Positions 5,507-61,149 of a DNA stretch of 64,000 bases are shown here, piece after piece. The position numbers were made by a program, and so were the translations under genes. Position 1 is the stretch's first letter; every line of letters begins with the position of its first letter. The notes beneath the pieces were generated by a model, which worked only from the letters and a program-made list of their open reading frames with translations, made no database searches and was not told the DNA's origin. Origin of the DNA: an uncultured Gemmatimonadales bacterium (GTDB lineage Bacteria > Gemmatimonadota > Gemmatimonadetes > Gemmatimonadales > GWC2-71-9); NCBI GenBank assembly GCA_963748815.1, contig CAVVKJ010000019.1, positions 32,001 to 96,000 on the forward strand, read 5' to 3'.

Positions 5507-6899
5507 ATGCCCCTCTGGACCGATATCGCAGCCGAAATCGCCGACTTCCGCCGCCGGATCCGGGATCTCCCCGTCATCCCCGACGCGACCCCCGCGACGC
5601 TCCGCGCCGAGCTCGAGCCGCGGTACAGGTTCGACCGGCCGATCGACCTGGAGACCCTGACCGCCGACGTGATGCGACTCCTCCGGACCCAGCAGGTCCA
5701 CGTCACCCACCCGCGGTACTTCGGCCTCTTCAACCCGCAGGTGCGCGAGGCCGGCATCGTGGCCGACACCCTCGCCGCGCTCTACAACGCCCAGCTCGCC
5801 GTCTGGAGCCACAGCCCCGCCGCCAATGAGATGGAACGGCTGGCGCTCCGCGCCCTGGCCACCCGGATCGGCTACGATCCGAACGGCATGCTGGCCCAGT
5901 TCACCTCCGGCGGCGCCGAGGCCAACCTCTGCTCCGCGCTCTGCGCCCTGGCCTCCCGGTTCCCGACCTGGGCCGAGTCGGGCGTCGCCGCCCTCGGCAC
6001 CCGGCCCGGCCATCTACGTCTCGGGAGAGAGCCACCACTCCTTCGTCAAGATCGCCAAGATGACCGGACTCGGCACCGCGAGTGTGCGCGAGGCACCGGT
6101 GCGCGCCGACCTGAAGCTCGACGCCGTGGCCCTCGAGCGGTTGATCGAAGCCGACCGGGTGGCCGGGTGGAGCCCCCTCCTTATCGTGGGGACGGCCGGC
6201 ACCACCGCCGCCGGCATCGTTGATCCGTTGCCGGAACTTGCGGAGGTGGCCAGACGCACCGGTGCCTGGTTCCACGCCGATGCCGCCTGGGGCGGCGGGG
6301 CGCTGATGTCCGACAATCTGCGGCCGCATCTCGACGGCATCGCGCTGGCCGACTCCGTCACCTGGGACGCACACAAATGGCTGAGCGTGCCGATGGGCGG
6401 CGGCATGTTCTTCTGCCGCCACCCGGAAGCGGTGAAACAGGCCTTTGCCGCCGTCCACACCTACATGCCCGTCCCGACCGGCGACACGGTGGACAACTTC
6501 CAGACCACCCCGCAATGGAGCCGCCGCGCCACCGGCCTCAAGGTGTTCATGTCGCTGGCAGAACTGGGCATCGAGGGCTACGGCAAGCTGGTGGACCACC
6601 AGGCGGCAATGGGGAGGCTCCTCCGCGAGAAGCTCACCGCGGCAGGCTGGCTGCTCGTCACCGACTCCCCGCTCCCGACCGTCTGCTTCAGCCACCCCGA
6701 CATCGAGTCGGGCCGGATATCGATCGACGAGGTCATCGGTCGAGTGTATGCCAACCGGCAGACCTGGATCAGCCCGGTCATACTCGGCGGGGAGCGCCGG
6801 CGGGCGCTCAGGGCGTGCATTACCAGCTATGAGACGGACGAACGGGATCTTGACGCGTTAGTGAACGAATTGATTCGCGCCCTTCGCGCCTTCGCGTGA
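5507..6899 (+). CDS. Group II PLP-dependent decarboxylase (frameshift near 6005)
   Basis: HPRYFGLF, TSGGAEAN, GTAGTT, HADAAWGG, DAHKW motifs split across ORFs 5507..6223 and 5826..6899. Confidence 0.85.
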
Positions 6900-7667: not shown

Positions 7668-7674
7668 CCGGGCG

Positions 7675-8002
7675 TTCCCCCTCTCCATATCATGGAGAGG
7701 GGGACAGGGGGTGAGGTGGAGAGCTGGCGGGGCAGGTGGGCCGGGAGGCCGGACCTGAAGTCTGTGTCATTCCCGCGCAAGCGGGAATCCAGTTGCATCT
7801 TCACTGGACCCCGGCGACCCTGCCCCGGCGAAAGCCGGGGGCCGGGGTGACGGCGCGCGCGTCGCTTTAGCGACATCAGCCGAGCCGCGGCTTCCGCCGC
7901 GAGTTCGCGCGGGAACAACCTGGACCCCCGCTTTCGCGGGGGTGACGACCTTCCATTGGAGTTCATGGTGCCTTTCACTTCCCCGCTTCCCCGCTTCCCC
8001 GC
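7675..8002. repeat. Mosaic repeat cluster (family B hairpin, three family A palindromes including a nested one, CTTCCCCG tandem)
   Basis: 7675-7716 CCCCTCTCC..GGAGAGGGG..GGGGTGAGG; 7766-7791; 7805-7851; 7921-7946; 7978-8002. Confidence 0.8.
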
Positions 8003-13985: not shown

Positions 13986-13990
13986 GGGCG

Positions 13991-14061
13991 TCCCCCCTCT
14001 CCACATGGTGGAGAGGGGGACAGGGGGTGAGGGACTCACGCGAAGTCGCGAAGCCGCGAAG
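13991..14061. repeat. Family B hairpin followed by CGCGAAGN octamer repeat (family C)
   Basis: CCCCCCTCTCC-ACATGGT-GGAGAGGGGG..GGGGTGAGG, then TCACGCGAAGTCGCGAAGCCGCGAAG. Confidence 0.75.
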
Positions 14062-21625: not shown

Positions 21626-22309
21626 TGACCGACGACACCGCCGCGGCCGCGCCGCGGCGGGCTCAGCGGTCCCGACGTGTCCTCGAACCGATCGAGCGGC
21701 TCTCCGAAATCCTCTTCGGACTCATCATGGTGCTCACCTTCACCGGCGCGCTCAGTGTGGCGGAGGCGGGGCGCGCGGATGTGCGCGAGATGCTCATCGG
21801 GGCGCTGGGGTGCAACCTGGCCTGGGGCATCATCGACGGGGTGTTCTACCTGATGGGAGCCATGGCCGAGCGGGGCCGCAACCTGCGTGCCCTGCGAGGC
21901 GGTGCGAGCGACCGAAGACCCGGAGGAGGCCGAGCGCCTCATCGTGGACGCGCTGCCGCCGACCATCGCGGCGGTGCTGGAGCCTTCCGAGTTCGTCGAC
22001 CTGCATCAGCGGCTCGGCGAACTCCCCGAGCCGCCCACCGCCCGCGTCTGGGCGGGACGACTGGCGTCGGCGCGCTCGGCGTCTGCCTTCTCGTCTTCGT
22101 CTCGACGCTGCCGGTGGTCCTCCCGTTCACTCTTCATGCACGACATCGCGCCGGCCATGCGCGTCTCCGACGGGATCGCGATCATCTTGCTCGCGCTCAC
22201 CGGGGCCGCGTTCTCCCGGATGACCGGCCGGAATCCCTGGTTCGACGGCGTCATCGCGGTGCTGCTCGGCTCGGCGCTGGTGGCGCTCACCATGGCGCTC
22301 GGCGGATGA
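21626..22309 (+). CDS. VIT1/CCC1-like membrane protein (frameshifted)
   Basis: LEPIERLSEILFGLIMVLTFT, GCNLAWGIIDG; multiple TMs. Confidence 0.6.
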
Positions 22310-22963
22310 CGGGCCTGAGGAGTCTCGCCCTGATCGGGCTCATCTCTTGTCCTGGTGACAAGGGTCGCCAGGGCGCAGTCGCCTGACACCGCCACCGCCT
22401 CGGCGTCGGACGCCGACGAGCGCACCTGGGCATTCGGCGCGGCGGCATACACCTACTTTCTCCAGGATGACGCCGACTACGTCCAACTGGCCGCGACCGC
22501 GGACCGCGCGGCGCTGCACCTCGAGGCGCGCTACAACTACGAGGAGATCGACGCCGCCTCGATGTGGGTCGGCTACAACCTGAGCGCGGAAGGGACGCTG
22601 ACGCTGGAGTTCACGCCGATTCTCGGCGGTGTCTTTGGCAGCATGACCGGGGTCGGACTCGGATACGAAGGGTCGCTGAGCTGGAAGAGCCTGGAGCTGT
22701 ACAGCGAAGGGGAGTGGATCTTCGATACCGAGGACTCTTCGAACAATTTCTTCTACAACTGGTCGCAGCTGATCTATTCGCCGGCCGACTGGGTCAACTT
22801 CGGGCTGGTCACCCAGCGGACCAGGCTGGTGGACACCGACCGCGAGATCAACCGCGGTCCCTTCCTGGGTTTCAGCTACCGGTCCCTCAGCCTGACTGCC
22901 TTCGCGGTCAACGTGGGGGCAGACGACGCGTACCTCATTCTCGGGCTGGAGGTTGGGTTCTAG
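22306..22963 (+). CDS. Exported beta-barrel-like hypothetical protein
   Basis: Alternating aromatic beta pattern, C-terminal Phe (GLEVGF); frameshift in signal region. Confidence 0.55.
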
Positions 22964-22974
22964 GCCGGAAGAGA

Positions 22975-23300
22975 GGACGAGGGAAGCGCGGAAGGGTGTC
23001 GGAAGCTCGGAAACAACGAAAAATGCTCAAAAGCGTCAATTTCTTGAAGGATATTCTGTGTTTTCTTCGATCTTCAATCAAATATCTGGGTTTTGCCGCA
23101 TTTTCTGCGGCTTTCCGGGCTATCGGCGTGAAGGGATCACCGCCTTGGACCGGGGACGCGGGAGGCGCGGAAGGCTGTCGGAAGCTCGGAAAGGTGGAAT
23201 ATAGACGAATTATCGCAATATTGGGTCAATAATCGATTGAAACAGGTCCATTTGTACCATTCTACTGTTGTTTTCGCGCCTTCGCGTCTTCGCGTGAGCC
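22975..23300. repeat. AT-rich intergenic block with 39-bp direct repeat and terminal family C repeat
   Basis: 22975-23013 vs 23154-23192 (36/39 identical); TTCGCGCCTTCGCGTCTTCGCGTGAGCC at 23273-23300. Confidence 0.7.
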
Positions 23301-23327
23301 CCGTCCGAACCCCGCCCGGGAGGCCCC

Positions 23328-23680
23328 ATGTGGCTGATCACCACCACCGGTTTCTACAGCGTCGTCCAGAAACCGTGGGATCAGGCCGCCGACACCCTCA
23401 CGGTTCGCGCCCGCGCCAAGGCTGACCTCGACGCACTCCGCGAGGCCGGGCTCCCGGAGCTGGGGGAGATCATGGAGGATCCCGGGCGCCGACTACCGGT
23501 TCCGGGCCCAGGCGCCGAGGGCGGCAGTGACCCGTGCGGTGCGAGGCGCAGGTCGAGGCGATCGACTACGACAACTTCAAGTCGGCGGTGGCCAGGCGGC
23601 AGGGATCGGCGCGCGCCCACCTGTATCATGGCGTGTGGGATGCGCTGTATCGGATTCAGTCCGGGACTGAAGGGGCCTAG
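23328..23680 (+). CDS. Conserved hypothetical protein (MW..T..GFYSVV..L.VRAR..D..IDY.NFK type), frameshifted
   Basis: GGAGG RBS; C-terminal IDYDNFKSAV..LYHGVW in another frame ending TAG 23680. Confidence 0.6.
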
Positions 23681-23883
23681 GCTTCCCGCGCCCATTGGGC
23701 TCCTCGCCAGACAAAAACACTCAAGAACGAGCAGTTTTTCTCCAGAACTCCTCAGTTTCTTCCTGTTTTCTGCGAATTCCAGCACAATACGGTGTCTTTT
23801 CGCGCCTTCGCGCCTTCGCGTGAGCCCTTGGGGAGTATCGAAGTGGCTTGCGCCGTTGCTGGTATTATCAGATATTATTCCGT

Positions 23884-24288
23884 ATGCCAAAGCGACCTCC
23901 CATTGCCCGGATCTCCATCACCATCCCCGCTGACACCCTGCGGCTGGCGGATGAGCTTGCCGCTCGGCTCGATCGGCCGCGCAGCTGGGTGATGGGGGAG
24001 GCGGTGCGGCGGTGGGACACGAGTTCCCCCGCGACCGGTGCCACAAGCACCGTGCGCGAGGCCGCGGCCCTTCACTACACTGCGCATCGGCCCGGGCTGG
24101 GGGAGAGTCGTCTGGCTCAACTCCAATCCGACATGGAGTTGAGCGTGGATGAGCGGGTCCTGGCGGCAGAGGAAGGCGCAAAGCTCGATCGCGTGATCCA
24201 TCCGTCGAGTCCCGGCTCACAACTCAGATTCTTCGATCGATACGAGGACTATCTCGCGTGGAAGAAGTATCAAGGGATCGCCCGATGA
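23884..24288 (+). CDS. Ribbon-helix-helix (CopG-like) protein, putative antitoxin
   Basis: RISITIPADTLRLADELAARLDRPRSWVMGEAV. Confidence 0.7.
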   Translation: MPKRPPIARISITIPADTLRLADELAARLDRPRSWVMGEAVRRWDTSSPATGATSTVREAAALHYTAHRPGLGESRLAQLQSDMELSVDERVLAAEEGAKLDRVIHPSSPGSQLRFFDRYEDYLAWKKYQGIAR

Positions 24289-24752
24289 CCACGTACCAGA
24301 CCCAGCTCGCGCAGGTCTGCGCGCTCCTGAATGAGTCCGGAGCGCAGTATGTCCTGGTAGGCGCCCGCGCCCTTCAGCTCTATGGCAGCAGCCGCGCCAC
24401 GCGTGATATCGACATCCTCATTGAGCCCACCATCGACAACGCCAGACGGGTGCTCTCGGCGCTCTCACAGATCGGATTCGGCGTGGCCAGCGATTGGCTT
24501 GCAGAGGAGGTCGTCGCCAAGCAGGTCACCATCATTGGTGACACGCCAAGGGTGGATATCCTGACGGTGGCGTGGAGCGTTCGCTATCGCGATGCCCGAC
24601 CCGCGGCGACGATCTTCACCCTGGAATCGGTGGAGATCCCGACGATCTCGATCGAGCACCTCATTGCCTCCAAACGCACCGGCCGCCTGCAGGACGCGGC
24701 CGACATCGAAGTCCTCGAGGAGATTCAGCGACTTCGCGGCGAGGGCATATGA
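24285..24752 (+). CDS. Nucleotidyltransferase (pol-beta superfamily, DUF6036-like)
   Basis: YVLVGA.A..YG..RATRDIDI, LIASKRTGRLQD..D. Confidence 0.8.
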   Translation: MTTYQTQLAQVCALLNESGAQYVLVGARALQLYGSSRATRDIDILIEPTIDNARRVLSALSQIGFGVASDWLAEEVVAKQVTIIGDTPRVDILTVAWSVRYRDARPAATIFTLESVEIPTISIEHLIASKRTGRLQDAADIEVLEEIQRLRGEGI

Positions 24753-25255
24753 CCGTCATCATCCGCGCCCTCCTCGCCGACATCACTACCCTCGACGTGG
24801 ACGCCATCGTCAACGCCGCCAACGACCAGTTGGCCCCCGGCGGCGGCGTCTGCGGTGCGATCCATCGCGCCGCCGGCCCCGAGCTCGCCGAGGCATGCGC
24901 CCCTCTCCGCCCCTGCCCTGCCGGCGAAGCGCGCGTCACCCCCGGCTTCAACCTCCCCGCCCGTCTCGTGATCCACGCCGTCGGTCCCCGCTGGCTCGGC
25001 GGCGACCAGGGAGAGCCGGAGCAGCTGGCCGGCGCCTATCGCTCGGCGTTCCGCCTGGCGCAGGAGAGCATGGTCAAGACCCTCGCGTTCCCCGCCATCA
25101 GCACCGGCATCTTCGGGTATCCGCTGCACCCGGCCACGGCCATTGCCGTGCGGGTGACGCGGGAGGTGGCGCCGGCGTCGGGGGTGGAGGAAGTCATCTT
25201 CGTCTGCTTCAGCGAGGAAGTGCTGGGGGCGTATCGGAAGGAAGGAGTGGAATGA
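24749..25255 (+). CDS. Macro-domain protein (O-acetyl-ADP-ribose deacetylase, YmdB-like)
   Basis: DIT..DAIVNAAN..GGGVCGAIHRAAG, IHAVGP, AFPAISTGIFGYP. Confidence 0.92.
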   Translation: MTVIIRALLADITTLDVDAIVNAANDQLAPGGGVCGAIHRAAGPELAEACAPLRPCPAGEARVTPGFNLPARLVIHAVGPRWLGGDQGEPEQLAGAYRSAFRLAQESMVKTLAFPAISTGIFGYPLHPATAIAVRVTREVAPASGVEEVIFVCFSEEVLGAYRKEGVE

Positions 25256-25314
25256 TCCCTCGCGCGTGATTCCGGTTGTGACCTTTCGCTGATGGGTACC
25301 AAGACTATAGGGGC

Positions 25315-25757
25315 TCACGCGAAGGCGCGAAGACGCGAAGGAGACAGCGGTATGAACGCAGAGGAGGTCTCCTCGGCTATTGTGGATACTGCATTTCACC
25401 TGCACAGAGGGATAGGACCGGGGCTCCTGGAGTCGGTCTACGAATCACTCCTGTCGAGTCTGCTGGAACGTCGGGACCTGAAGGTAGAACGACAAGTACT
25501 CGTCGAGTTCGATTTCGACGGGGTTCACTTCTCGGAGGGATTACGGCTGGACTTGTTGGTGGAAGGCTTGGTGGTGGTTGAACTCAAGTCGGTGGAGCGA
25601 TTGGCGCCGGTCCACCCGAAACAACTTCTGACATACCTCCGACTATTGCATCTCCCGCTCGGCCTCCTCATCAACTTCGGCGCACCCACCTTCAAGGAAG
25701 GCGTCAAGCGAGTCGTCAACCATCACACCAACTTCGCGTCTTCGCGCCTTCGCGTGA
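25315..25757 (+). mobile_element. GxxExxY gene cassette bounded by perfect 26-bp inverted repeats
   Basis: TCACGCGAAGGCGCGAAGACGCGAAG at 25315-25340; exact reverse complement at 25732-25757. Confidence 0.6.
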
Positions 25758-25774
25758 ACCAACGGTCCGACTAA
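25352..25774 (+). CDS. GxxExxY family protein (PD-(D/E)XK nuclease-like)
   Basis: GPGLLESVY, RLDLLV..VVELK, QLLTYL..GLLINF. Confidence 0.93.
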   Translation: MNAEEVSSAIVDTAFHLHRGIGPGLLESVYESLLSSLLERRDLKVERQVLVEFDFDGVHFSEGLRLDLLVEGLVVVELKSVERLAPVHPKQLLTYLRLLHLPLGLLINFGAPTFKEGVKRVVNHHTNFASSRLRVNQRSD

Positions 25775-26364
25775 AGAACCCCGGCAATCGCGTAGGCGAT
25801 CTTCTCCGCCCCCTGCGAGGACGGTTCGATCTCCAGCACGAAGTCCTCCTCCTCCGTGCACACTCGCCGCAATTCCAGCACCTCCAGCCCCAATTCCTCG
25901 CCGACCCACCGGATCCGATCGTTGATCAGCCCGAGGGGGACGCGGGCAAGCCGGCCCGCCATCGGCGGCTGCAGCGGCACCTCGTAGATGGTGCAGAGCA
26001 CCGTCCTTTCCGTGCGCTCCATGACCGACCGCGCCGCCACCTCGTACTGCAGGTGGAACCCGTCGGCGATGGCCAGCAGTTCCGCCAGGACCTCGGCCGC
26101 CGAGGTGGCGGGCCGCTCGATGATCTCGATGTAGGGCACCAGGTCGTTCCCGCCGATGCTCAGCACCGCGACATCCGGCCGATAGTCCAGCGCCTCGAGC
26201 TGACGCGGCAGGCCGCGCATGGTGGCGCCGTCCTGCGCCAGCCGCTTCACCGACCAGGTCGGGGCCAGCAGCGGCTCCAGGTGCGCGGTCGTGTCCGGCT
26301 CCGGGTGGGTGTAAGGGGCGTTGTCGAGGATCGAATCGCCGAGGAGGAGGAGGGTCTGGGTCAT
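25771..26364 (-). CDS. SGNH/GDSL hydrolase
   Basis: LLGDSILDN, LSIGGND, IEPS..G. Confidence 0.8.
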   Translation of the reverse strand: MTQTLLLLGDSILDNAPYTHPEPDTTAHLEPLLAPTWSVKRLAQDGATMRGLPRQLEALDYRPDVAVLSIGGNDLVPYIEIIERPATSAAEVLAELLAIADGFHLQYEVAARSVMERTERTVLCTIYEVPLQPPMAGRLARVPLGLINDRIRWVGEELGLEVLELRRVCTEEEDFVLEIEPSSQGAEKIAYAIAGVL

Positions 26365-26417
26365 TGATATCTCACGCGAAGACGCGAAGGCGCGAAGGCG
26401 CGAAGCTGGGTCGGACA

Positions 26418-26443
26418 AGTATGTCACACCCCTCTGACATCTT
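26418..26443. promoter_or_regulatory. Overlapping divergent PafBC-type promoters
   Basis: + TGTCAC-N10-CATCTT (26422-26443); - TGTCAG-N10-CATACT (26439-26418). Confidence 0.6.
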
Positions 26444-26499
26444 GGCCTTTCACGTTAGTTGGTCTGACCGGAGCATTGACCAGGAGGAGAGGGAACCCG

Positions 26500-26865
26500 A
26501 TGCCTGACTGGAAACCGAGCCCGATTGCCGGGAAGTTCTACACCGTAGAGGACCTCATGAACCTGCCGCCGGCAGGATGCGTCAATCCCGCGAAGTCCCG
26601 GGAGGTGAGCCGGAACCTGCCGGTGCGGTTCTGGATGGAGACGGCCGAGCTGGTGGCCATTCTCGAGGCCAACATCGAGCTGATCAGGCTCAACCAGGAG
26701 CGGGCCAGCGCAGATGACGCCCGCCAGGCCGAGGTGCTGATTGCGCAGCGACGGCTCTGGGTCCGCCACCTGCTGGAGGCAGACGAGGAAGAGACCTTCA
26801 TCGGCATCTTTCCCGCGTCGTTCGCCGGCGACGAATACGATCAGGAGGAGGCCATCACCGGCTAG
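26500..26865 (+). CDS. Hypothetical protein, paralog of the ~33030-33293 ORF
   Basis: AGGAGG RBS; shares G.F.TVE.LMNLP, NIE, NQ and DARQ motifs with the paralog. Confidence 0.7.
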   Translation: MPDWKPSPIAGKFYTVEDLMNLPPAGCVNPAKSREVSRNLPVRFWMETAELVAILEANIELIRLNQERASADDARQAEVLIAQRRLWVRHLLEADEEETFIGIFPASFAGDEYDQEEAITG

Positions 26866-26870
26866 TTCCT

Positions 26871-26968
26871 CTTCGCGACTTCGCGTGAGCCGAATCAGTT
26901 CACACGAAGTCGCGATCTTTCACCTCACCCCCTGTCCCCCTCTCCATGATATGGAGAGGGGGAACGCC
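26871..26968. repeat. Family C right end plus reverse family B hairpin
   Basis: CTTCGCGACTTCGCGTGAGCC; CCTCACCCCCTGTCCCCCTCTCCATGATATGGAGAGGGGG. Confidence 0.75.
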
Positions 26969-26976
26969 GAGCGAAG

Positions 26977-28233
26977 CTACGGCATCCGCATCTTCCTGCC
27001 GAGGAGGTCTTTCGCTTCCCGGATGTTGTAGGACTCGAAACGCTCGCGCTTGAGCGAGTACTGGTCGAACCGCTCCCGGTGCCTGTGGGCCAGCTGTTCC
27101 AACTCGCGCACCAGGCGCCGCATTTCGGGGTCATGTCCGGCGTACTCCTTGATCCGACGGGCGGTGGCCAGCAGTACGCTGCGCGCCTTCTCCAGTTCGC
27201 CGATCCGGTTCAGCTCGGCCGCTTCCTCGCGGGCCTGGGCGGCGTAGCGCTGGGCCACGGCGAGGTCCACCGACTGGTCGCGCACCTGGGCGTCGTTGGC
27301 GGGGTGGTCGGCGTACTCCCACTCGATCCGCTCGGGGCGGACCTGCAGTACACCGTCACGATCGGCCAGGGAGACACTGATACCGGAGCTGGCGCCCATG
27401 GCACCGCGGGGGAACGTCACGCGGAGTACCGCGTCCACCTGCTGGCGGCTGACGAGGTCGTCGAGCGCGACTTCCACGGTGCGGCCGTTTCGGGTGACGC
27501 GGCGACCGTCGAGCGAGTGAATGATCAGGCCGGGGTCGGCTTCGACGACGACGCTGGCGTCCCGTGACACGACCTCGAGCGCCTCGCCCAGTTCGCTCAT
27601 CAGGAAATCGGCAATCTGTTCCGGACGCTCGAGGTAGTAGAAGTTCCCGCCGCCGGCCCGGGCCATGCCCTCCATGAGCCGCTCGTCGAAATCGCGCCCG
27701 ATGCCGAAGGTGCTGGTGGCGACGCCGCGGGCGCGGAGTTCGCCGGCATGCGTTTGGAGCGCACCCACGTCGGTGATGCCGGCGTTCGCCAGGCCGTCAC
27801 TCAGCAGCAGCGTGCGGGCGACGGTGTTCGCGCGCTCGGCGCGAGCCACCTCTTCGCAGCCCGTCAGCCAGCCGCCGGAGAGGTTGGTGGAGCTGCCGGA
27901 ATCGAGATGGTCGATTGCCGAGAGGAGGCGGCGCTTGTGGTCGTGATCGAGGAGCGCGCCGCCGGCCAGGAGCTCCACCTCGGTGTCGTAGGCCACCAGG
28001 GCCACGTGGTCGCGGGGGCCGAGAAGTTCGACCGCGCGGCGGGCAGCCAACTTCGCCAGTTCCAGCTTGTCGCCGTCCATCGAGCCCGACTTGTCGATGA
28101 CGAGTGCGACGTCGAGCGGCAAACGTTCGCGCTGACGCGGGGCCTCGGGGGCGGTGAAGCGGATGCGGACATAGCGGGTGCTGTGGACGCCGGCGCGGAC
28201 CAGCCTCCGGTCGGTATGGATGTGCAGTGTCAT
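26977..28233 (-). CDS. vWA-domain protein (YfbK/Ca-activated chloride channel-like)
   Basis: MIDAS DKSGSM, STNLSGG, LLSDGLAN; start at ATGA overlap with MerR gene. Confidence 0.88.
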   Translation of the reverse strand: MTLHIHTDRRLVRAGVHSTRYVRIRFTAPEAPRQRERLPLDVALVIDKSGSMDGDKLELAKLAARRAVELLGPRDHVALVAYDTEVELLAGGALLDHDHKRRLLSAIDHLDSGSSTNLSGGWLTGCEEVARAERANTVARTLLLSDGLANAGITDVGALQTHAGELRARGVATSTFGIGRDFDERLMEGMARAGGGNFYYLERPEQIADFLMSELGEALEVVSRDASVVVEADPGLIIHSLDGRRVTRNGRTVEVALDDLVSRQQVDAVLRVTFPRGAMGASSGISVSLADRDGVLQVRPERIEWEYADHPANDAQVRDQSVDLAVAQRYAAQAREEAAELNRIGELEKARSVLLATARRIKEYAGHDPEMRRLVRELEQLAHRHRERFDQYSLKRERFESYNIREAKDLLGRKMRMP

Positions 28234-28760
28234 AGACCCTCCCCAGTATTGATGAGCCGATCGGCGAGTTCGACCAGCCGACTCACCAACTTCGTCTCGT
28301 GGTGTGACAACGGGCTTCGAACGTGCATCTCGATGTTGGGGGTGAGGGATATCCGCTCCCAGGAGTCGCGGGAGCGTTGGGAAGGGGTGGCGACCGTCCG
28401 CTGCGGGGTCCGTTCCGCGCGGAAGAAGGGGGTTTCGCGTTCGGCGCCCATCCGGATGGAGCGGGCGTAGTCGGCGGCGGATTTGCGGCGCTGCTGAACC
28501 TCGGCGAGGGTCCTGGCCACCTCGGCGTCGTCCATCGGGGCCAGCCGGTCCTGGATCTCGGCCAAGGTCAGGCGCTCCTTTTGGAGGGCCCGGATGAGCT
28601 CGAGGCGCTGGACATCGGAGTCGCCGTAGAGGACCTTGACCCCGCGGAGGCCGGGGGAGTCCATCAGCCCTTCGTTCTGGTAAAACCTTATGGTACGGAC
28701 ACTTAGACCGGTGGCGGCGGCGAGATCCTGGATGGAGAGGTCGTCGGAGTTGAGGAGCAT
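28230..28760 (-). CDS. MerR-family HTH regulator
   Basis: LSIQDLAAATGLSVRTIRFYQNEGLM..Y...L..I..LQ. Confidence 0.85.
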   Translation of the reverse strand: MLLNSDDLSIQDLAAATGLSVRTIRFYQNEGLMDSPGLRGVKVLYGDSDVQRLELIRALQKERLTLAEIQDRLAPMDDAEVARTLAEVQQRRKSAADYARSIRMGAERETPFFRAERTPQRTVATPSQRSRDSWERISLTPNIEMHVRSPLSHHETKLVSRLVELADRLINTGEGL

Positions 28761-28767
28761 GGCAGTA

Positions 28768-28796
28768 AATGTACAGTTTGACTGTTATACTGTCAA
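28768..28796 (-). promoter_or_regulatory. Near-consensus sigma70 promoter with embedded operator, probably leaderless
   Basis: TTGACA-17 bp-TACATT, 7 nt before ATG; ACAGT-TTG-ACTGT palindrome at 28773-28785. Confidence 0.7.
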
Positions 28797-28915
28797 TACC
28801 CATGGTCCCTGGAGTTGATGTCTCCGGCCGCTCGTCCAAGCCACTTGTGTTCCGTCCTTTCCGTGACAGACTTTGAAACGCTGATCATCCCACCACCAAG
28901 AGCGAGAGGGAAGCG

Positions 28916-29511
28916 ATGGAACAGAACCCAATCCATTTCGAGCCCTGGAAGGCGAGTTGTTCAAGAGTGGCGAAGGCCAGCTCGGCTCCAAACGGCTCCT
29001 AGTCCTCGGCGAGGCGCATTACTCCGACCATCCTGAGGATGAGACCCCGGAGCTCACGTGCAACCTGCTTCAGACCATCACTGATGGGACCAGGTCGATC
29101 GCGTATTTCACAAAGCTCGAGCACCTGCTCGCCGGTTGCCAGAACGGTGACGGAAGACGCCGTGTCGGGCTTCAATGGGGTTCTACACTTTGACAGGGAC
29201 TCGTCGCGAAGGCGCGAAGACGCGAAGACGCGAAGAGGGGGCTCACACGAAGGCGCATTTGCGGTGTGCTGGCAGAATTGAAACCTCAACGAGTCCTCGT
29301 CACCGGCGTCGAACTCTGGAACGCACTGAGCCATGGACTCTTTCCGGGCTGGACGTCCAGATCAATGACGCCGGGATTCGACGGCCCGATTTACGAATGG
29401 AGTTCGGTGGACCACCAGCCACAGGTCTGCGCCACCTGGATCAGCCACCCATCCTCCGGCTCATCCGCCTACGAGAAGTGGACCGAGCGGATTGACACGC
29501 TCATGGAGTAG
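28916..29511 (+). pseudogene. Uracil-DNA-glycosylase-like protein interrupted by a family C repeat
   Basis: FEPW.., LLVLGEAHY, LKPQRVLVTG..LW, SHPS in different frames; repeat at 29204-29256. Confidence 0.55.
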
Positions 29512-29529
29512 GCAATCAGCGAACCCTGC

Positions 29530-29551
29530 TGTCACACCCCCATGCGATTGT
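29530..29551 (+). promoter_or_regulatory. PafBC-type promoter
   Basis: TGTCACACCCC-N5-GATTGT upstream of ATG 29585. Confidence 0.5.
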
Positions 29552-29584
29552 TCGGGTCAACCGTACCACCAACCCGAGCGTGCA

Positions 29585-29995
29585 ATGGACTACCCGTCGA
29601 ACCCACTAACTCTCTTTCCTCCTGCAATCCATGAGCTGCTCGACCGGCAATGCAAGTCCTGGAAGCCACACCACGCCGCACTTGTTGTTGTCTTTCGTGT
29701 ATGGCAACTCGGTGCAGCGCTTCGGTGGAACGTGGCGCCTCCTCCCTGTTCTACGGATTGGTGCGACTCGAATTGGCGTGTGAGCTCCGACCGACTTGGC
29801 TGGCTGGCCGAAGGCAGGGAGTACGTCCGTCGGAGTTCGGGCCTCACTTCATCAGCCTCGTGGCGGGGTGGAGTTGGGCCGGCCGGAACACGTTCCTCAT
29901 CGGGGGTTTCCGCCTGCCGCATCGTACACGCCTCAAGCGGCGGTACCGCGGAGTCTCCGCATGCTGAGCGGGCAATCCAGCGCCGCGCAGCGTGA
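29585..29995 (+). CDS. Hypothetical protein (possibly frameshifted)
   Basis: ATG downstream of promoter motif; no recognisable domain. Confidence 0.3.
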   Translation: MDYPSNPLTLFPPAIHELLDRQCKSWKPHHAALVVVFRVWQLGAALRWNVAPPPCSTDWCDSNWRVSSDRLGWLAEGREYVRRSSGLTSSASWRGGVGPAGTRSSSGVSACRIVHASSGGTAESPHAERAIQRRAA

Positions 29996-29999
29996 ATTT

Positions 30000-30693
30000 C
30001 CGACAGTGTTCGCGGCTTCGCGCGAAGAGGGAACGGTCACCTTCTGGAAGGCGCGCGCGGCCAAGTGCGCGTGCCCCCGGTGTCGGAGCATGAAGTCATC
30101 CTGGAACCGGGTCTCAAGAAGTCGCTGCTCGACTGGCTGGACCATTTCTGGAATCAGCAGTCAGCGGCTCGGAACTGGGCCTGACGCCGAGGGGACCCCG
30201 CTCGGCCACACCCATCATCTCCGTGTAGCCAGCCGGAATAGGTCCAGTCCCGGCCTTCCCGGACGGGATGGCCATCTGTATGTCGCCACCACCTCAGGGC
30301 GGCAAGCCGATTGCTTCAGCCGATGCTCGGCCTCTCGCGCCAGCTCGGCGAACCGCTGCACGAGGACTTGTCGGCGAGCACCCGGGCGGTGTGTGGCGCG
30401 CATCCGTCCAATGTGAAGTAATTGTTCTCGGCGTCCCCCGTTGTGTATCGGGCGGCTCGCGCCAAGGGATCGTGATCCAGTCGCACCGTTGTCGTGGAGG
30501 ATGTACAGGGCAAGCCAGCGGGTAGGACGCCGCGTCTGTTCGCCGGAAGAACAGGCCGCTCGGTGCGTTCGCGGAGACGATCCGAAGGCCGCTGGTAGCC
30601 GCGCTTGTGCAGTTCGTGCACCATCTGGAGGACGCGCACTGCCCGGCGGACAATGGGCTCAGGCGAGCGGACGCTCGGCTTGGGAGTAGCCAT
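30000..30693 (-). CDS. Hypothetical protein (VHELHKRGYQR motif), frameshifted, 3' end uncertain
   Basis: Coupled to DUF429 gene; coding-like fragments in successive frames. Confidence 0.4.
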
Positions 30694-56924: not shown

Positions 56925-57009
56925 AAGATATCGCTCTTCGCGTCTTCGCGTCTTCGCGTGAGCTGCGGGCGAGCGCACCGTATCCTGCCGCGGGAGGAGG
57001 GTGGACTCT

Positions 57010-57231: not shown

Positions 57232-57497
57232 CTCACGCGAAGCCGCGAAGCGTTTTTTTGTCACTCTCGTCATTTTTCTAAGTTTTTGGCAATATTTTGG
57301 CATTTCTTGCCATCATTATGTCCATTTCTTGTCGTTTTCGCGTCTTCGCGCCTTCGCGAGAGCCCTCGGACCACTGCGGCAGCACCTATCAATCATTGAC
57401 GAGAATCAGGTTGTTTGTCGTATTTTTTCCGTATTTCCGGCTGTTTTCCGCTGTTTTCCATCGTTTCTGTTGAATTCCGCGCTTTCGCGTGAGCCCC
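57232..57497. repeat. Family C-bounded T-tract elements
   Basis: CTCACGCGAAGCCGCGAAG..T-tracts..TTCGCGTCTTCGCGCCTTCGCGAGAGCCC..T-tracts..TTCGCGTGAGCCC. Confidence 0.75.
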
Positions 57498-60816: not shown

Positions 60817-61149
60817 GCTCACGCGAAGGCGTGAATAGGGGGGCTCACGCGAAGACGCGAAGGGGGCTGTACAGTCAAAGTTTCCAATTTCTTGTAGTTT
60901 TCGGTTGCCTTCTTACAATTTTCCTCAGTTTTCCATCGTTTTCTGTGGTTTTGTCGCTGTTTTCACGCCTTCGCGGCTTCGCGTGACTCCAAAGGCCGTC
61001 ACCGTCAACCTCCACCAGGATCGACAGAAATTGAGCCATTTCTCGCAATTCTTCCGCATTTCCGGCTGTTTTCCGCTGTTTTCCCTCGTTTCTGTTGAAA
61101 TTAGCATGCCCCTTGCTCGGCTTCGCGCCTTCGCGGCTTCGCGTGAGCC
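60817..61149. repeat. Family C-bounded elements with 10-bp-phased T-tracts
   Basis: GGGCTCACGCGAAGACGCGAAG..phased TTTT..CTTCGCGGCTTCGCGTGA (twice). Confidence 0.8.

Follow-up and report, generated by a model that had tools for sequence, protein, structure and literature searches.

Organization of the Locus

The window (the whole 64,000-nucleotide stretch analyzed, from one contig of a Gemmatimonadales genome, here called the source genome or G000) contains a gene of the GxxExxY (PDDEXK_3) family enclosed between two 26-bp arms, which are exact reverse complements of each other, with the exact match extending in neither direction (Table 1). This agrees with an earlier note made from the sequence alone, which described a perfect inverted repeat bracketing the gene. 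The note also placed the right repeat in the coding sequence, which holds, and called it the last codons, which does not: the arm-derived peptide FASSRLRVN is followed by five further codons (QRSD and stop). As the note had observed, target-site duplications are absent; a direct repeat of at least 3 bp was seen at one out of 40 arm–gene–arm units, compared with 0.5 in shuffles. The 476-nt unit folds as a single long stem (z −4.1, DNA parameters).

Table 1. Features of the GxxExxY locus and of the related repeats in the window. G013 and G014 are the two sister genomes; C14 is another contig of the source genome.
Feature	Position	Strand	Comment
Gene-less arm	6882..6899	-	Common to G014
Gene-less arm adjoining another repeat family	14036..14061	+	Common to G014
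Second arm family (CGCGGAA/CTCGGAA), 2 copies	22975..23192	+	Same type flanks the C14 paralog
Gene-less arm	23273..23297	-	Common to G014 and G013
Gene-less arm 5' of RHH gene	23799..23823	-	Common to G014
Left arm	25315..25340	+	TCA, then three copies of CGCGAAGN; ends 11 bases 5' of the start codon
GxxExxY/PDDEXK_3 gene, 140 aa	25352..25774	+	E27, D67, E77-x-K79, Q91, Y95
Right arm	25732..25757	-	Mirrors the left arm exactly (reverse complement)
Arm-derived codons FASSRLRVN, residues 128–136	25733..25759	+	L133, hydrophobic 135, and N/H136 retained in decayed-arm relatives
Gene-less arm, 4 units	26372..26405	+	Directly 5' of the GDSL start codon
Head-to-head pair	26871..26913		Minus arm 26871–26888, degenerate plus arm from 26900
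Gene-less arm, 4 units, then degenerate arm	29205..29256	+	
Gene-less arm	56936..56961	-	
Inward-facing gene-less pair	57233..57361		AT-rich 94-bp spacer
Single degenerate unit	57484..57492	-	
Three arms, two plus and one minus	60819..60986		AT-rich 107-bp spacer
Gene-less arm	61121..61146	-	

Dispersed Arms in the Window and in the Genome

Each of the 14 other positions at which the earlier note reported the repeat has an arm within a few bases, 57484 being merely one degenerate unit, and arms at 6882, 26900, and 30008 can be added to its list. The genome-wide count that the note had suggested yields 33 arms at ≤2 mismatches and 36 if CACGAAG units are permitted, nearly all of them intergenic; with the looser pattern, 19 out of 36 are on the window's own contig. 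High-GC3 ORF cores, which make up 83% of the genome, contain three out of 36 arms, the other 33 being outside. The tandem heptamer occurs 41 times in the genome, compared with a median of 0 and a maximum of 3 for the other 127 of the 128 permuted heptamers.

Paired gene-less arms of the source genome have two geometries, head-to-head and inward-facing across AT-rich spacers of 94–217 bp. The head-to-head pair at 26871–26913, together with the arm at 26372, encloses a 121-aa ORF. In genome G067, comprising two long contigs with one GxxExxY gene, 27 out of 30 non-gene sites of the AAG type are ~60-bp hairpins formed by the right arm, a loop of 8–12 bases, and the left arm, and ten sites picked as pairs from genomes G062 and G209 have the same head-to-head order, which would be expected if the gene unit's two ends were joined to each other.

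In the source genome, 18 out of 30 AAG arms lie within 174 kb (contig C19 and C5:1–60000) around the gene, where 1.7 are expected, and the enrichment of other repeat families in that region is little or none. Clustering near the gene as a general trait was dropped, since the second arm family has no comparable clustering (four out of 30) and none is evident in G067, G082, and G092. Relatives lacking the gene also carry arms near the macro-domain gene locus, as if from a lost gene.

Thirteen out of 30 arms are within 200 bp of a different repeat family. A further family, CCCCTCTCC...GGAGAGGGG, with 52 copies in all, and 99 SRM-like hairpins co-occupy the arm-bearing intergenic spaces and interchange between relatives; examples in the window are at 13986–14032, 26916–26965, and 7670–7717. 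At G000:C5:36823–37074, directly 5' of a gene start, an inward arm pair surrounds two palindromes, and the same arrangement is seen in G014 (L172). These palindromes, the sole ones found in the genome, we take to be parS-like.

The genome has just one other GxxExxY homolog (C14:122094, 37% identity). Its arms are of a different type, CGCGGAA/CTCGGAA, which is dispersed as well (27 motif matches, a few of them by chance). Thus, when the paralogs are examined for inverted repeats, as the earlier note had proposed, both of those in the genome have a dispersed arm family of their own. The repeat next to the genome's single Y1 transposase (Y1_Tnp) match is a third one, unrelated to either arm family.

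The GxxExxY Protein

The encoded protein matches PF13366 (PDDEXK_3) with 121 bits (cut-off 22, E 4e-35) and TIGR04256 (GxxExxY) with 124 bits (cut-off 35, E 3e-36). All 69 aligned sequences have E27, D67, E77, K79, and Q91, and the catalytic residues are intact in 130 out of 132 single-domain matches. The predicted model (pLDDT 88.8, pTM 0.83) has a PD-(D/E)XK-like core, with D67, E77, and K79 on strands 58–70 and 74–79. Cas4 heads the Foldseek rows, most of the top ones being PD-(D/E)XK or restriction-like enzymes, but the matches (best E 5e-3; best structural comparison Z 8.0, rmsd 3.7, 103 aligned residues) are below significance. The E...D...ExK...QxxxY arrangement is presumably a motif like that of the Cas4/RecB family, whose members 4ic1 and 4r5q are among these rows (E 5e-3 to 3e-2, weak); however, no Fe-S cysteines are conserved in the GxxExxY alignment. 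The protein is likely a sequence-specific nuclease, with its own arm type as the predicted target.

The family profile matches 13,739 clusters (50% identity) at E 1e-10, and the best 150 profile matches include tandem fusions. Their first domain retains E27, D67, E77, K79, and Q91 in 15 out of 15 aligned sequences, whereas the D-E-x-K residues are kept in the second domain in none of the 14 fusions that have it in full, although the GxGLL-Y-E and NF motifs are retained there; a model of the two-domain fusion has pTM 0.80. One active and one dead domain would be expected of a dimer for which a single active site is sufficient, that is, one producing a nick, and so the fusion pattern suggests a nicking dimer.

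Co-Variation of Arms and Proteins

From 113 relatives found in the species collection, 80 loci were retained, with hosts from many phyla; the closest relatives are labelled Gemmatimonadales. Inverted flanks (score ≥24) are present at 51 out of 80 loci, compared with seven out of 270 control window pairs, and the remaining 29 relatives have no scored inverted pair. In 40 units, both arms point towards the gene and keep fixed distances from it. Of the DNA flanking the loci, 75 upstream stretches of sufficient length fall into 59 unrelated groups and 73 downstream stretches into 56, and proteins with 73–79% identity come from Methanothrix (an archaeon), Acidobacteriota, and Anaerolineae (Chloroflexota).

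Six arm types were mapped on a protein tree of 117 core domains, of which 89 were arm-labelled; the 28 rows without a label did not enter the count, and short-match rows were excluded, as were six loci that were duplicates or frameshifted. The mapping requires 14 changes, whereas 500 shuffles gave 42.8 on average and never fewer than 36. The repeat content of genomes, with GAG and AAG repeats counted in 50 out of 68 genomes with aligned proteins, shows a similar dependence. In the GAG-arm clade (12 genomes), at least five GAG repeats are found in ten genomes and at least five AAG repeats in none; in the AAG-type genomes (33), at least five AAG repeats are found in 26 and at least five GAG repeats in 11. 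Five of the GAG-rich AAG-type genomes were searched for a GAG-type paralog, which is clear in two, doubtful in one, and not found in two; G067 has 275 GAG-type repeats, yet its sole gene is of the AAG type. Among 17 genomes of the genus, the three carriers of the cognate gene have the highest arm counts (33, 24, and 14 vs. 0–10), and, these being close kin, this is one observation rather than three. More generally, the tree and the genome counts overstate independence, because kin share gene and repeat alike. Arm type tracks both the protein tree and the repeat content; a lack of such co-variation is what the earlier note had named as refuting its reading.

Six out of 40 relatives of the archaeon G062 have 20–47 AAG arms, and none of the six has a cognate-type gene; four out of five tested relatives (20–40 arms each, completeness not given) have no match to PF13366. 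These gene-poor archaeal repeats could have been orphaned by gene loss, could reflect incomplete assemblies, or could have another driver. At L177 (G062:C16:9960–10750), an archaeal cassette is followed by a second, arm-led, internally deleted copy, that is, a local duplicate. At other archaeal GxxExxY genes (L178–L187), CACAGAG/CACAAAG arms form a downstream hairpin and do not surround the gene.

The Translated Right Arm

The reading frame is open through the right-arm codons in 59 out of 80 loci, with the DNA arm intact in 42 and decayed in 17. In the decayed-arm rows, which no longer have the period of the repeat, Leu133 is kept in 16 out of 17, with all six Leu codons in use, and Leu133 combined with Val, Ile, or Leu at position 135 in 15 out of 17; random placement of equal base changes gives a mean of 4.5, and 15 was reached in none of 20,000 draws. 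Position 136 is Asn or His in 14 out of 17 decayed rows, while most non-coding copies would give Ser. Most of the decayed cases seem to be separate, as the tree, with 17 decayed and 41 intact rows, shows 14 switches between the two states, although many of its forks are weak. In a looser class, the left arm is kept at six out of 18 decayed loci vs. 27 out of 32 intact ones. The locus ranking query included the tail, so that tail-bearing matches were favored in these counts. By this substitution pattern, the S-x-L-R-(V/I/L)-N peptide of the subfamily is now apparently selected as protein and outlasts the DNA repeat.

In other clades, the reading frame stops short of the arm, and therefore the read-through is likely derived (on an unrooted tree). 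The tail is unstructured in the AlphaFold monomer, with pLDDT 75 at residues 121–130 and 52 at residues 131–140. There is also an in-frame ATG upstream of the gene, at 25292 in the window, and at L092, L113, L121, and L123 an upstream start codon brings the left arm in frame, so that both arms may be translated.

History of the Locus

The gene lies between macro-domain and GDSL genes in the source genome, G014 (84% identity), and G013 (frameshifted), and the source genome has one gene copy per arm type. Compared with its G014 ortholog, the nuclease gene has dN/dS 0.107 at dS 1.01, and is, by this ratio, under purifying selection. The dS values of the RHH gene (0.82) and the 121-aa ORF (0.77) are also higher than those of the macro, GDSL, VWA, and MerR genes (0.34–0.43); the higher dS among the genes neighboring the arms is possibly due, in part, to lower GC3, which is 0.70 in the nuclease gene vs. 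0.84–0.92. A search of plasmid records yielded one match in 72,556, and a search of phage records none (such a search misses distant paralogs). Hence, the gene is single-copy, vertical in the genus, and rare on plasmids, as are RAYTs. The earlier note's description of the unit as autonomous, that is, self-copying, is not supported by these data, given a single copy per arm type, the same locus in G000, G013, and G014, and dN/dS of 0.11.

In order to compare orphan sites, 28 arm clusters on 15 stretches of G014 were matched against the source genome. Ten had no two-sided synteny, and the other 18 included two of the gene's own arms, two already counted, one false match in a gene, and one cassette of the other paralog, leaving 12. 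Eight of these 12 sites are common to the source genome and G014, and four are found in G014 only, some of them perhaps between paralogous neighbors. Fixed repeat positions across relatives, which the earlier note regarded as evidence against its reading, are thus seen for the former eight sites and not for the latter four.

Most macro-gene junctions at 15 loci of the genus run into another gene. At G013:C7 (L050), the macro gene is joined to the GDSL gene without the nuclease gene, and between them lie two further repeat families and what is left of an arm, so that no clean junction can be read there. The empty-site alleles sought at the earlier note's suggestion therefore yielded no clean empty site among the 15 loci. 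A search with the GDSL neighbor in 121 genomes gave four other matches. Candidate excision joints between arms in contigs of related strains (six runs), with sides of 19–32 bases, were rejected as most likely gene-less pairs elsewhere; in two of the six runs, the locus carries a diverged gene. Given the single-copy gene, purifying selection, the locus fixed in three sister genomes, and the shared orphan sites, the unit is not an active insertion sequence.

Comparison With Known Systems

According to the available text of PMC11893778, SsnA is a single-domain GIY-YIG nuclease, repeat-flanked, with site-specific cleavage of ssDNA. As far as that text goes, the Ssn system with its NTS/SRM repeats has in common with the GxxExxY system a small single-domain nuclease gene between genome-dispersed repeat copies, the existence of many nuclease–repeat pairs, and flanking on both sides (42% of Ssn homologs, PMC11893778, vs. 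51 out of 80 GxxExxY loci). Flanking by cognate repeats and co-varying repeat variants are thus found here as well. However, Ssn is a GIY-YIG enzyme, whereas GxxExxY is a predicted PD-(D/E)XK enzyme; SRMs, as described there, are self-complementary hairpins, whereas the GxxExxY arms are tandem 8-mers requiring a partner arm; and cleavage has been demonstrated for Ssn, whereas the nuclease activity of GxxExxY is predicted.

In the excerpted text of the respective reports, REPINs are defined as inverted doublets (PMC3116915), RAYTs are single-copy and vertically inherited (PMC5581495), and the inverted-repeat-flanked enzymes mentioned are tyrosine transposases only (PMC3733652). On that basis, the REPIN/RAYT and TIRtron/TIRYT systems (PMC3116915, PMC5581495, PMC3733652) share with ours a single-copy vertical enzyme gene flanked by its own repeat, intergenic gene-less inverted doublets, and a separate repeat for each paralog; the doublets are seen at the 27 hairpin sites of G067 and in both geometries in the source genome. 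The HUH/Y1 transposase of REPIN/RAYT is absent between the arms, the enclosed gene belonging to PF13366; the tandem-unit arms also set the GxxExxY system apart, and their profile contains no GTAG or CGTC tag. The system appears to work like REPIN/RAYT and Ssn/SRM, and differs from both in the type of the enzyme. In addition, neither target-site duplications nor multiple near-identical copies at variable sites, as of an insertion sequence with MITEs, were found.

The protein is a plain member of the PDDEXK_3/GxxExxY family, whose function is given as "Unknown" in the available passage of PMC3424549, with multiple transfers between bacterial divisions and archaea; that passage contains no mention of flanking repeats, dispersed copies, or a read-through tail. 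We found no description of GxxExxY–repeat pairing in the literature searched, which comprised the main text of openly accessible papers. Rickettsia palindromic elements, described in the excerpted PMC3733652 as in-frame insertions, are likewise repeat DNA read as protein, but here it is the gene's own arm that is read, by C-terminal read-through, and the peptide outlasts the DNA repeat. The new elements are the translated right arm, with the peptide kept after arm decay, and the active/dead tandem fusions.

Proposed Mechanism and Alternative Explanations

The earlier note's suggestion of a REP/RAYT-like pairing, with one nuclease gene and dispersed gene-less copies, is supported by the arm dispersal, the absence of target-site duplications, and the co-variation, and we infer that the nuclease may drive the family, as the note worded it. 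The explanation we favor, and regard as reasonably probable, is that the protein binds and nicks the tandem arm flanking its own gene, and that host repair copies or moves the hairpin, leaving no target-site duplication. The arm–gene–arm unit would be the gene-bearing member of the repeat family; the GxxExxY protein, recognizing arms of its own type, would spread the gene-less hairpins or maintain them; one strand would be cut by a dimer, probably in single-stranded or cruciform DNA; and copying would proceed via a single-stranded or circular intermediate, with host repair. We know of no covalent strand-transfer chemistry in PD-(D/E)XK enzymes, so joining would need host repair. The gene would have a RAYT-like history, with one locus within the genus, long-term passage between phyla, and occasional loss leaving orphan repeats.

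The repeats could instead owe their spread to a different enzyme, or to host recombination that places them in intergenic hot spots, with the nuclease gene as a passenger retaining the arms it happened to inherit. Repeat-rich genomes lacking a detectable gene, the GAG type of G067 lacking a cognate gene, the proximity of 13 out of 30 arms to another repeat family, and the fact that arms also enclose the 121-aa ORF (26500–26862) are in line with this. We nevertheless consider it unlikely, because the distribution of the six arm types across phyla follows the protein clades, the arms of 40 units face the gene with fixed spacing, the genome's Y1 transposase has other repeats, and the 121-aa ORF, though present in G014, is found in none of 200 other genomes of the phylum. 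An active element excised and inserted whole like an insertion sequence, with the short pairs as its MITEs, would have perfect terminal inverted repeats and many unrelated neighborhoods, as observed, and the gene-less macro–GDSL junction of G013:C7 and the local partial duplicate in G062 could be read in the same way; yet there is a single copy per arm type in the source genome, no target-site duplication, one plasmid record of 72,556 and zero phage records (in a search that misses distant paralogs), and at G013:C7 an arm remnant with other repeats rather than a clean empty site. The fixed position, the locus being the same in three genomes despite dS of ~1.0 to G014, largely refutes this explanation, to which we give very little credence.

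It is also conceivable that the arms act in RNA, pairing around the ORF as an intervening sequence, with the hairpin processed by the protein or RNase III and the gene-less copies serving as mRNA stability or processing signals. The single long stem formed by the unit, the intergenic position of the copies, and the transcription of the right arm, implied by its translation, would be expected then. What makes this improbable is that the gene 3' of the nuclease is convergent, so that excision would rejoin nothing, that opposite-strand neighbors are common (19 out of 54 upstream and 17 out of 45 downstream), that copies occur in both orientations and both pair geometries, and that no Rfam match was found within 22000–30500 of the window. 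Finally, the gene–repeat pair could be kept because it benefits the host by filtering incoming ssDNA site-specifically, as shown for SsnA, with the spread of repeats as a side effect, which is compatible with the favored nick-and-repair explanation. SsnA, according to the available text of PMC11893778, cuts near its repeat and modulates transformation, and dS is higher in the genes lying among the arms (1.01, 0.82, and 0.77) than in neighboring ones (0.34–0.43), although this may stem from lower GC3; we see this as a minor possibility.

A broader generalization of nicking and host repair is tentative and somewhat doubtful: GxxExxY proteins may constitute a third repeat-partnered class beside RAYT and Ssn, made of 125-residue nicking dimers, each reading its own 8-mer arm, with transposase-free hairpin copying via a circular junction, and one branch may have made its DNA target a functional C-terminal peptide. 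A very large function-unknown family gains a named candidate substrate, as the flanks of each homolog carry the predicted target. This would account for several hitherto unassigned families of repeats, found in Gemmatimonadota, Acidobacteriota, Planctomycetota, Verrucomicrobiota, and certain archaea, and bears on the way in which REP-like repeats can spread when no transposase is involved. Site-specific nickases of very small size would make useful tools, and the tail offers a clear and countable example of repeat DNA having become protein sequence under selection.

Neighboring Genes and Related Observations

Upstream of the nuclease gene, at 23884–25255 of the window, genes of an RHH protein, a nucleotidyltransferase, and a macro-domain protein lie in a row, with a toxin–antitoxin-like pair. 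Another copy of the macro gene lies on contig C3 and is followed there by a different gene. The 121-aa ORF (26500–26862), inside an inward arm pair, has no Pfam match; a 64% identical copy is present in G014, and a search of 200 further genomes from the phylum found no other. The ORF at 23328–23680, between two direct arms, is apparently frameshifted, and a second copy starts on C3. As contigs of related strains have one base fewer at 23480 in four out of four runs and at 23543 in three, the frameshift may be an assembly error.

In G014 (L174:7928–8600, contig G014:C9), an inserted ORF, Ssn-like by eye, lies between GTCATTGCGAGG-type hairpins, and the matching site of the source genome (G000:C10:1044491–1044578) is empty, forming a possible filled/empty pair of an Ssn system.
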